Source of the DNA: Candidatus Omnitrophota bacterium
GTDB lineage: Bacteria > Omnitrophota > Gorgyraeia > 1-14-0-20-64-10
Assembly (NCBI GenBank): GCA_023248155.1
Contig: JAHFFE010000002.1
Coordinates: 256,864-320,863, forward strand
DNA length: 64,000 bases
Direction of reading: 5' to 3'
The position numbers were made by a program, and so were the translations under genes. The notes below the pieces were generated by a model. The model saw nothing but the letters and a program-made list of their open reading frames with translations, did no database searches and was not told the DNA's origin. This document shows, one piece after another, positions 49,647 to 52,093 of this stretch. Position 1 is the stretch's first letter; every line of letters starts with the position of its first letter.

Positions 49647-49674
49647 TTGACAACCAGTTCCCGCGTGGTACTAT
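49647..49674 (+). promoter_or_regulatory. Sigma70-type promoter of the groES-groEL-groES operon
   Basis: TTGACA (49647-49652), a 16-nt spacer, then TACTAT (49669-49674). Located ~70 nt upstream of groES and immediately before the CIRCE-like element. Confidence 0.5.
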
Positions 49675-49684
49675 ATCCCTGCGA

Positions 49685-49711
49685 TTAGCACTCTGCACCA
49701 GAGACCGCTAA
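49685..49711 (+). promoter_or_regulatory. CIRCE-like (HrcA operator) inverted repeat
   Basis: TTAGCACTC-N9-GACCGCTAA, compared with the consensus TTAGCACTC-N9-GAGTGCTAA. The left half is perfect and the right half matches 7 of 9. Confidence 0.55.
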
Positions 49712-49743
49712 TAAGTACTGCATAAATCAACCGAGGAGATGTA

Positions 49744-50043
49744 ATGGCGATTCAACCGTTGAATGACCGTATTTTAATCAAGCTGGAAGATCAGGAAGAC
49801 AAATCATCCGGCGGCATTATTTTGCCGGACTCCGCCCAGGAGAAACCGCATATGGGCAAGGTGGTTTCGGTAGGCAAGGGCAAAGTTTTGGAAGACGGCA
49901 CCGTCCGTCCGCTGGAAGTTAAAACGGGCGATACCATTTTGTTCGGCCGCTACACCGGAACCGAAGTTGTCTTCGACGACAAGGAATATACGATCCTCCG
50001 CGAAGACGATGTTCTGGCTATTGTCAGAGAACACCGTAAGTAA
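49744..50043 (+). CDS. groES: Co-chaperonin GroES (copy 1)
   Basis: [35 protein letters not shown]…, a 99-aa Cpn10. RBS gaggag. Confidence 0.9.
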
Positions 50044-50072
50044 TTACCCCACTATTAAAGGAGTAACAATTA

Positions 50073-51713
50073 ATGGCTAAGCAACTCTCGTTCAATGATG
50101 AAGGCCGGCGCGCGCTGCTGCGCGGCGTCGAAACCCTCGCCCGTGCGGTTAAAGTCACGCTGGGACCCAAGGGCCGCAACGTAATCTTAGACAAAAAATT
50201 CGGCTCCCCGACGATCACCAAAGACGGCGTCACCGTCGCCAAAGAGATCGAGCTCGAAGATCCGTATGAGAACATGGGCGCCGAGATGGTCAAAGAAGTC
50301 GCTTCCAAGACTTCCGATACCGCCGGCGACGGCACCACCACCGCCACCGTTCTGGCCGAAGCGATTTTCCGCGAAGGTCTCAAGAACGTGACGGCCGGCG
50401 CCAACCCGATGGGTCTGAAGCGCGGCATCGACAAGGCTGTTATCGAAGCGGTCGATTCCCTCAAGAAATTATCCAAGACGGTCAAGGACCGCAAAGAAAT
50501 CGCGCAGGTTGCTTCCATCTCCGCCAACAACGACGCCAAGATCGGCGAACTGCTGGCCGAGGCGATGGAAAAAGTCGGCAAGGACGGCGTCATCACGGTT
50601 GAAGAAGCCAAGGGCATCGAGACCACGCTGGAAGTCGTCGAGGGTATGCAGTTTGATCAGGGCTACCTCTCCCCGTACTTCGTCACCGATACCGACCGCA
50701 TGGAGTGCGTTCTCGAAGATCCGTACATTCTGATCCACGAGAAAAAGATTTCCGTCATGAAAGACATGCTTCCGCTGCTCGAGAAAATCGCGCGCACCGG
50801 CCGTCCTTTGGTCATTATGGCTGAAGAGGTCGAGGGCGAGGCGTTAGCGACGCTGGTGGTCAACAAAATCCGCCAGACGCTCGTGACCTGTGCCGTCAAG
50901 GCGCCGGGTTACGGCGACCGCCGCAAGGCCATGATGCAGGATATCGCGGTATTAACGGGCGGGCTGGCGATCACCGAAGAACTCGGCCGCAAGCTTGAAA
51001 CCATTGAACTGTCCGACCTCGGCCGCGCCAAGCGCGTCGTCGTCGATCGCGAGAACACCACCATCATTGAAGGCGCCGGCAAAACGGCCGCCATCAATGG
51101 CCGCATCACCGAAATCAAAAATCAGGTCGAGAAAACCGACTCTGACTATGATCGCGAAAAGCTGCAGGAGCGGTTAGCGAAACTCTCCGGCGGCGTAGCC
51201 GTGGTCAAGGTGGGTGCCGCGACTGAAACTGAAATGAAAGAGAAGAAGGCGCGCGTGGAAGATGCTTTGCACGCGACCCGCGCCGCGGTTGAAGAGGGAA
51301 TCGTTCCGGGCGGCGGCGTGGCTTGTTTACGCGCGCAGGCGGCTCTGGACAAAATGAAACTCTCCAACCATGATGAGCAGGTCGGCGTCGATATCGTTCG
51401 CCGCGCGCTCGAGGAACCGCTCCGCCAGCTCGCCAGCAATGCCGGGCTCGAAGGCGCCGTGGTTGTTCAGCGCGTCCGTGAAGAAAAGGGTGCGTTCGGC
51501 TTCAATGTCGACAAAGAAGAGTACGTCGACATGCTCCAGGCCGGCATCATCGATCCGACCAAGGTAACGCGGTTGGCTCTGCAGAATGCGGCCTCCATCG
51601 CGGGACTGTTGCTCACCACCGAAGCGCTCATCACCGACATTCCGGAAAAAGAGAAATCAGCTCCGGGCGGCGGGCATGGGCACGGCGGCGGCATGGGCGG
51701 AATGGACTATTAA
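50073..51713 (+). CDS. groEL: Chaperonin GroEL
   Basis: [19 protein letters not shown]…[18 protein letters not shown]… and a C-terminal GGM-type tail ([15 protein letters not shown]). Confidence 0.97.
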
Positions 51714-51716
51714 TCC

Positions 51717-52007
51717 ATGATGAATCTAAAGCCTCTCGGCGATAAAGTAATCGTGGAAGTGCTCGGCTCGGCCGAAAAGACCAAGAGCGGACTCTACCTG
51801 CCGGATACCGCGCAGGAAAAACCGCAGGAGGCCAAGGTATTAGCGGTCGGTTCAGGGCGCGTTCTGCCCAACGGCAAAGTGGTTCCGCCGGATCTCAAGG
51901 CGGGCGACATTGTTCTGTTCGGCAAGTACTCCGGCAACGAGGTCACACTCGACGGCAAGGAGTATTTGATCATCGGTCAGGACGATGTTTTGGCTGTTAT
52001 CAAGTGA
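51717..52007 (+). CDS. Second Cpn10/GroES paralog downstream of groEL
   Basis: MMNLKPLGDKVIVEVLGSAEKTKSGLYLPDTAQEKPQEAKVLAVGSGRVL… is a full-length Cpn10 fold sequence. Start is 4 nt after the groEL stop. Confidence 0.85.
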   Translation: MMNLKPLGDKVIVEVLGSAEKTKSGLYLPDTAQEKPQEAKVLAVGSGRVLPNGKVVPPDLKAGDIVLFGKYSGNEVTLDGKEYLIIGQDDVLAVIK

Positions 52008-52015
52008 AATAGATA

Positions 52016-52047
52016 GTCATCCCCGAATCGTTTTTGTCGGGGATCTA
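52016..52047 (+). repeat. Hairpin repeat R, copy 1 (gtcATCCCCGAatcgtttttgTCGGGGATct)
   Basis: An 8-bp stem ATCCCCGA/TCGGGGAT with a 10-nt loop. A near-identical copy lies at 58035-58067, matching at 29 of 32 positions. Confidence 0.7.
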
Positions 52048-52061
52048 AAATCGTAAACAGT

Positions 52062-52093
52062 CGGCCGGGGAAAACTCCCGGCCGTTTTGTTTT
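52062..52093 (+). terminator. Intrinsic terminator of the groESL operon
   Basis: Hairpin cggccggg-gaaaact-cccggccg followed by ttttgtttt. Confidence 0.75.

Follow-up and report, generated by a model that had tools for sequence, protein, structure and literature searches.

We analyzed a stretch of 64,000 nucleotides from a Candidatus Omnitrophota bacterium (GTDB lineage Bacteria; Omnitrophota; Gorgyraeia; 1-14-0-20-64-10), which corresponds to positions 256,864 to 320,863 of the forward strand of contig JAHFFE010000002.1 in assembly GCA_023248155.1. We call this whole stretch the window, and all coordinates below are given relative to it unless a locus of another genome is named. The window encodes a chaperonin operon with two groES genes. 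Few gene pairs of bacteria are as conserved as the groES-groEL operon. Here, positions 49647-52094 hold, in this order and on the plus strand, a sigma-70-type promoter, an operator of the CIRCE type (controlling inverted repeat of chaperone expression), a first groES (groES1), groEL, a second groES (groES2), and an intrinsic terminator. All the elements described in the original prediction, from the promoter and the CIRCE-like repeat to the strong terminator, could thus be located.

The promoter (49647-49674) matches the consensus at 10 of 12 positions and consists of TTGACA (49647-49652), a 16-nt spacer, and TACTAT (49669-49674) with an extended -10 TG. The CIRCE operator (49685-49711) reads TTAGCACTC-N9-GACCGCTAA, begins 10 nt after the -10 box, and occupies the 5' end of the predicted transcript. 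It is followed by the Shine-Dalgarno sequence of groES1 (GAGGAG, 49733-49738), which was read from the sequence and belongs to a block conserved in the upstream alignment, and by groES1 itself (49744-50043). This gene encodes the upstream co-chaperonin of 99 aa (Pfam Cpn10, E=1.2e-34, profile positions 2-93 of 93). groEL (50073-51713) also has a Shine-Dalgarno sequence that can be read directly (AAGGAG, 50058-50063), and its product of 546 aa ends in a Gly/Met-rich C-terminal tail (Pfam Cpn60_TCP1, PF00118, E=2.4e-82, profile positions 1-488 of 490). The downstream co-chaperonin gene, groES2 (51717-52007), encodes 96 aa, or 95 aa when counted from the ATG at 51720 (Pfam Cpn10, E=2.2e-32). The terminator (52062-52094) comprises a stem-loop (52062-52084) with a 9-pair stem, of which 8 pairs are G-C, and a loop of 5, followed by TTTTGTTTTG.

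The genes are separated by 29 nt (groES1-groEL) and 3 nt (groEL-groES2), and we found no convincing internal signals: the only terminator-like match inside groES2 is weak (5 pairs, 51971-51987). A separate promoter or a terminator before groES2 can be ruled out in the window, because the 3-nt gap leaves no room for it. Hence, with one promoter and operator, one terminator, and short gaps, the locus is most likely a single heat-shock-type transcription unit, as expected if the operon is tricistronic. The groES2 gene had been placed 4 nt after the groEL stop. The close adjacency holds, and the gap is in fact 3 nt (TCC). Between the groES2 stop and the main terminator, we also noticed by eye a second hairpin at 52019-52044 (ATCCCCGA ... 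TCGGGGAT), which has no T run.

The second groES was proposed to be diverged but intact, with the loss of conserved mobile-loop residues as the mark of a degenerate pseudogene. We found a complete co-chaperonin. GroES2 matches the Cpn10 profile (PF00166) from end to end (positions 1-93 of 93) with 111.4 bits for a cut-off of 21.1. It aligns without gaps to GroES1 over 95 residues (46% identity, 74% positives) and to the Cpn10 of Thermus thermophilus (1WNR and 4V4O, E ~2e-31). Its mobile loop, EKTKSGLYLPDTAQEKPQEAKV, aligns column for column with the GroES loops of T. thermophilus and E. coli, and keeps the hydrophobic tripeptide followed by a proline (SGLYLP; GGIILP in most orthologues). The roof hairpin segment, GSGRVLPNGKVVPPD, has the normal length, aligns without gaps to E. 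coli residues 44-58, and forms paired strands in the AlphaFold2 model. This model, built on 30 orthologues, has a mean predicted local distance difference test score (pLDDT) of 80.5 and a predicted template modelling (TM) score of 0.69. Its only weak block is the mobile loop (residues 21-30, mean pLDDT 58), as expected for a flexible loop. The top Foldseek matches of the model are 4V4O, 1WNR, 8WUW, 1P3H, and 1AON, with TM scores of 0.72-0.76, and the best ones are GroES chains of GroEL-GroES complexes. Given a full-length Cpn10 with an intact reading frame, loop, and roof, and a ratio of nonsynonymous to synonymous substitution rates (dN/dS) of about 0.1 (see below), we rule out that groES2 is a pseudogene or a degenerate copy.

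GroES1 has the canonical mobile loop GGIILP and a short, charged C-terminal tail (REHRK). Such tails recur in the subclade of the window (50029-50043 in the window; L008, L009, L011, L088, and L089 among the loci introduced below) as REHRK, QEKK, EERR, GEKR, KDKK, and KEKK, and are absent from GroES2. Some GroES2 orthologues (L015:3970-4000, L016:3970-4000, P0010, P0029, P0035, and P0047) seem to start further upstream. They have an Ala/Thr/Ser-rich N-terminal extension of 9-14 residues (MATATASASS...), giving products of 104-109 aa.

To study the distribution of this layout, we collected loci from contig look-ups of homologues and from a scan of one genome per GTDB species, and classified the fetched loci by tblastn. 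The closest homologues of GroES2 form more than 120 clusters with 73-100% identity, and every named one comes from Candidatus Omnitrophota or Omnitrophica. The order groES-groEL-groES (hereafter ES-EL-ES) was found in at least 13 distinct assemblies of Candidatus Omnitrophota (loci L002-L007, which are from one species, L008, L009, L011, L012, L013, L015, L016, L017, L018, L088, and L089/L090), which answers the survey of related genomes proposed with the original prediction. One more locus, L010, shows groEL-groES2 on a contig that begins inside groEL. The GroEL of the window is 74-89% identical to those of the related ES-EL-ES loci, and every GroES2-type match that is at least 64% identical to the window copy directly follows groEL in the fetched loci. 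The upstream groES1 is kept in 13 of the 14 lineages where this position could be examined. The remaining one, L014, has a CIRCE, a 171-nt leader, groEL, and a GroES2-type gene (L014:880-3041), with no upstream groES in the 7 kb examined. No downstream Cpn10-like sequence was found in any of 57 control groESL loci with an entire groEL and 450 nt or more of sequence after it, taken from other Omnitrophota, Acidobacteriota, Deltaproteobacteria, Elusimicrobia, Bacteroidota, and others.

The ES-EL-ES loci have a common neighbourhood, BirA-NfeD-PanK (pantothenate kinase)-[operon]-IMPDH-RlmN-GuaA (GMP synthase), which indicates vertical inheritance. Since the layout recurs with these neighbours in independent assemblies from NCBI, ENA, and JGI, an artefact of assembly or binning is ruled out. 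Taken together, a groES2 that is either a degenerate pseudogene or a product of assembly has a negligible probability in our assessment. Hence, ES-EL-ES is a conserved trait of a whole Omnitrophota lineage.

The arrangement also appears to be rare. Full-text literature searches returned no description of a groES-groEL-groES operon. Among 4,861 complete genomes, a census counted 5,253 groES, of which 435 lack a neighbouring groEL, and 4,824 groEL located just downstream of a groES (PMC5406781). Subtracting the 435 leaves 4,818 groES with a neighbouring groEL, to be compared with 4,824, so these counts reveal no excess of groEL-adjacent groES. Together with the 57 controls, this bears out the rarity initially assumed. 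In the same census, genomes with a single groEL always have groES upstream (PMC5406781). The L014 locus, whose gene order is inverted relative to the textbook one, would be an exception to this rule, unless there is another groES elsewhere in that genome.

We then turned to the control region. A promoter scan alone was at chance level (3 sites for 2.5 expected in 3.6 kb), and we call the promoter because it is conserved in relatives, not because of its scan score. TTGACA does not vary, and the -10 box is kept at the equivalent place, in 7 of 7 orthologous upstream regions. In their alignment (n=7), the invariant blocks are TTGACA, TTAGCACT, and the C-GCTA of the right half-site. The order and the spacing of TTGACA, the -10 box, and CIRCE are common to the upstream regions of every related operon. 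The CIRCE of the window matches the consensus TTAGCACTC-N9-GAGTGCTAA at 16 of 18 positions, with a spacing of exactly 9. It is the sole site with at most 3 mismatches in the 64 kb, and none was found in 100 dinucleotide-preserving shuffles. Its left half is perfect and its right half matches at 7 of 9 positions, confirming the two deviations noted at the outset. This deviation is not private to the window. The CIRCE repeat is perfect in L002, L017, and L018, and throughout the subclade of the window the right half-sites are weakened at the inner bases (AACTGCTAA, GCCTGCTAA, AGCTGCTAA, and GACCGCTAA), following the pattern nnC[T/C]GCTAA. The same weak right half across the subclade points to a conserved trait rather than to decay. 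Judging from this operator, the operon is presumably controlled by HrcA. The 5' end of the transcript over CIRCE is also predicted to fold as a hairpin (-13.8 kcal/mol, z-score -1.8).

Regulation of the sigma-32 type had been put forward as another explanation of the weak CIRCE. We found no sigma-32 (RpoH) promoter (CTTGAAA, 13-17 nt, CCCCATnT) upstream of the operon, and the window contains 2 such sites for about 2 expected in shuffles. The best match, with 2 mismatches, lies at 49413-49443 (CTCAAAA, a 16-nt spacer, and CCCCATAT), about 330 nt upstream and inside the preceding TPR gene. As the matches occur at chance frequency and the best one is within the upstream gene, we rejected this explanation.

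A search for known RNA families in the window and in the related leaders returned only a tRNA-Pro (GGG) at 26013-26089, the only RNA gene detected in the window. In two relatives with ES-EL-ES, about 100 nt of conserved, structured leader separate CIRCE from the Shine-Dalgarno sequence of groES1 (L002:3875-3996 and L018:1718-1828). Aligning the two sequences gives 22 predicted pairs, with compensatory changes in 5, and the leader has no Rfam match. This leader could be an extra element of post-transcriptional control. It is absent from the window, where CIRCE and the ATG are only 32 nt apart.

The GroES2 orthologues are 95 aa long and start with MNLKPL, which makes the second ATG, at 51720, the likelier start in the window. 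The strongest Shine-Dalgarno sequence of the operon belongs to groES1, and that of groEL is also clear. In the window, groES2 lacks one, and only 3-6 nt lie between the groEL stop and its start. Such a tiny gap and the absence of a Shine-Dalgarno sequence suggest that translation of groES2 is here probably coupled to the termination of groEL. In relatives, the gap ranges from 3 to 84 nt (including 4, 11, 14, 17, 19, 34, 67, and 68 nt), with a G+C-rich hairpin in some, and most groES2 have their own Shine-Dalgarno sequence. Hence, coupling would be local to the window and not a defining feature of the system. groEL and groES2 share one frame (TAA TCC ATG) in the window and in L089. A GroEL-GroES2 fusion by stop-codon readthrough was rejected, since the shared frame is not conserved in relatives, and its presence in the window is probably a coincidence.

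To assess how the copies evolve, we compared the window with its relatives. The dN/dS values are 0.086-0.115 for groES2, 0.078-0.123 for groEL, and 0.073-0.142 for groES1, with most dS values above 1 and thus saturated. In the least saturated pair, L088 and L089 (dS ~0.73), the ratio is 0.115 for groES2 and 0.083 for groEL. Hence, groES2 is under purifying selection, with a dN/dS similar to that of groEL. It is also the more conserved of the two GroES copies between species. The mean pairwise identity of orthologues is 69% for GroES2 and 63% for GroES1, with GroES2 higher in 38 of the 45 genome pairs. The dN of groES1 exceeds that of groES2 in 7 of 7 pairs, from about equal to about 2.2-fold, and is roughly twice as high in the pairs that include the window. 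The window GroES1 is on a long branch: relative to L088, it is 68% identical, for 87% in GroES2.

These rates, together with L014, which keeps only groEL-groES2 behind CIRCE, could mean that GroES2 is the principal co-chaperonin and that GroES1 is relaxed, drifting towards loss or a side function. However, groES1 is itself under clear purifying selection (dN/dS 0.07-0.14 in round figures), has the canonical loop and the best ribosome-binding signal of the operon, and is retained in nearly all lineages where its position could be assessed. We therefore regard this scenario as improbable.

One might also have expected the two copies to be equivalent, with groES2 simply raising the GroES:GroEL ratio, e.g., for "football" complexes in which both rings are capped. 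Fully capped GroEL requires equal numbers of GroES and GroEL subunits (PMC5904260), and both copies keep every canonical feature within one operon under one control. Yet, the copies of a genome are only 46-63% identical, and the positions at which they differ are common to the entire group. In E. coli numbering, the GroES2 group differs from GroES1 by the fixed changes R9K (giving GDK for GDR), K13E with R14V (giving IVEVL), D51N, T53K, K55V, and L57P in the roof hairpin, and L86I. The consistent differences thus sit in the N-terminal strand and at the tip of the roof. The roof substitutions give the lids a different charge at the roof tip, acidic in GroES1 and neutral to basic in GroES2. The mean roof-tip charge is -1.0 in GroES1, +0.9 in GroES2, and -0.85 in the single-copy GroES of Omnitrophota, with mean isoelectric points of 5.7, 7.5, and 5.9, respectively. 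Copies kept only for dosage are not expected to hold such group-specific differences, with opposite charges, under a dN/dS of about 0.1. Hence, we consider it unlikely that dosage is the whole explanation, and the sequence differences suggest that GroES1 and GroES2 differ in function.

A neighbour-joining tree of GroES unites all downstream copies in one group and places the upstream copies among the single-copy GroES of Omnitrophota. In the GroEL tree, all Omnitrophota loci group together (95% support), and L008, L009, L011, L012, and L013 cluster with the window at 99%. The single-copy GroES of L019, L023, and L028 look intermediate between the signatures of the two copies, as would fit a scenario where groES was duplicated long ago within the phylum and both copies then diverged. 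The lineages carrying groES2 may be a single group, or groES2 may have been lost several times; both histories are compatible with the trees.

The reading that we favour, and hold to be reasonably probable, is that one transcript controlled by HrcA and CIRCE supplies a single GroEL with two specialised lids. HrcA would bind CIRCE and thereby control one transcript with groES1, groEL, and groES2, so that one housekeeping GroEL and two intact, anciently diverged co-chaperonins would be made together under common stress control. GroES1 would be the counterpart of the single GroES of other Omnitrophota, with an acidic roof tip and a faster evolution. GroES2 would form a group apart, restricted to one set of Omnitrophota and to the position just after groEL, with a distinct N-terminal strand and a roof tip that is neutral to basic. 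As the GroEL-binding mobile loop is kept in both copies, both should cap the co-encoded GroEL, and the fixed differences in the roof and the N-terminal strand suggest a division of labour between the lids. They might act as alternative homo-heptamers or as mixed heptamers, giving the folding chamber different properties. A stronger version, in which the lids are not interchangeable and either form mixed heptamers or occupy the two rings of one GroEL tetradecamer as an acidic-roof and a basic-roof lid, is a tentative and rather doubtful extension.

GroES2 might instead serve another partner, such as a second GroEL encoded elsewhere, or have a side role unrelated to chaperonins. In bacteria, groES and groEL often occur as stand-alone genes (PMC5406781), and the 64 kb visible here leave space for further groEL copies in the rest of the genome. 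However, in every locus examined groES2 lies directly after a groEL with a GGM tail, 3-84 nt behind it, and no stand-alone gene of its type was recovered in the genome scan, which was limited to 600 candidate stretches and 80 loci, the latter picked by similarity to GroES2. This tight linkage argues that the adjacent GroEL is the partner, and we find another partner very improbable.

Several observations weigh against a single chaperonin with two specialised lids under HrcA control. The scan just described is a limited census, and all the sequences are from uncultured, metagenome-assembled genomes. No hrcA was found by tblastn in the window and the fetched loci, in a rough search that used an N-terminal stretch of HrcA as query and covered, with the window, only a small share of the genome. 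Some single-copy GroES from other phyla have basic roof tips too, up to +3, so that the charge difference alone is no proof of a new function; it is suggestive, not diagnostic. The group of downstream copies has a bootstrap of 25%, a weak phylogeny that we attribute to the only ~95 sites of GroES, and the deeper Omnitrophota nodes of the GroEL tree have 5-44% support.

Compared with known systems, ES-EL-ES is a real lineage-specific variant of the well-known groESL system and not a new machinery. It resembles the HrcA/CIRCE groES-groEL operon of the Bacillus subtilis type, with a sigma-70-type promoter, then CIRCE at the transcript start, groES, and a groEL with a Gly/Met-rich tail. It differs from it by the third cistron, a diverged groES placed after groEL within the unit, and by the right half of CIRCE, which in the window subclade keeps only its outer bases, the left half being perfect. 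Among lids, gp31 of phage T4 (1G31) is a distant structural match of the GroES2 model, with a TM score of 0.59. This phage protein is a second lid that alters the chamber of the host GroEL, and its published structure has no roof hairpin and a longer mobile loop. In contrast, GroES2 has a roof and a loop of normal length, and is chromosomal and vertically inherited. To our knowledge, extra chaperonin genes have nearly always been studied as extra groEL or as duplicated whole operons.

A near parallel is Bdellovibrio bacteriovorus, which has GroES1 (bd0097), GroES2 (bd3349), and one groEL, and for which alternative lids have been proposed (PMC3464611). In both systems, one groEL goes with two groES paralogues that keep the GroEL-contact residues. 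However, the Bdellovibrio groES2 stands alone elsewhere in the chromosome, encodes 117 aa, and is expressed late in predation (PMC3464611), whereas that of the window encodes 95-96 aa immediately after groEL, on the promoter and operator of groEL. In chloroplasts, Cpn10, Cpn20, and Cpn23 form hetero-oligomeric lids (PMC5904260, PMC4242682, PMC5780408), so that several diverged Cpn10-type subunits also serve one chaperonin, and the Cpn20 and Cpn23 chains of 7EKQ are detectable homologues of GroES2. The chloroplast proteins, unlike those described here, are encoded in the nucleus of eukaryotes, and tandem fusions of Cpn10 domains occur among them. In Omnitrophota, each lid has a separate single-domain gene within the same bacterial operon, and any mixing within heptamers is hypothetical. 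Finally, whole groESL operons are duplicated in cyanobacteria (groESL1, groESL1.2), rhizobia, and myxobacteria (PMC5381637, PMC5406781). These cases also show an extra groES that is kept, signs that the copies divided or changed function, and CIRCE in some of the duplicated operons. Yet, each extra groES there has its own groEL and promoter, whereas here only the co-chaperonin is doubled, on both sides of a single groEL.

Here, the lid alone is doubled, with both copies probably co-regulated with one GroEL and strongly selected throughout a deep, uncultured lineage. This makes it a natural system for asking what the lid contributes to chaperonin function, e.g., through the charge of its roof or the interface between subunits, and it could reveal whether bacterial lids mix or differ between the two rings of GroEL. 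If the lids were not interchangeable, this would be a two-lid bacterial chaperonin, a counterpart of Cpn10/Cpn20 in chloroplasts. If the two-lid reading holds, L014 would show that the downstream copy alone can suffice.

The surroundings of the operon in the window differ from those of its relatives on both sides. Upstream, two extra genes (42922-49643) lie between the pantothenate kinase gene and the operon, which are directly adjacent in the closest relatives, L088 and L089. One of them codes for 1504 aa without a Pfam match and lies in a region of 48-52% GC, and the other codes for a 738-aa protein with TPR repeats. Downstream, IMPDH directly follows groES2 in relatives. In the window, a stretch of low GC content at 52100-56800 separates the operon terminator from IMPDH (42-46% over 52-55 kb and ~50% by 56.8 kb, for 55% in the window as a whole). 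This stretch, probably an island that was acquired, codes for two proteins, one of 382 aa with a SEC-C motif at its N-terminus and one of 225 aa with a PEGA domain.

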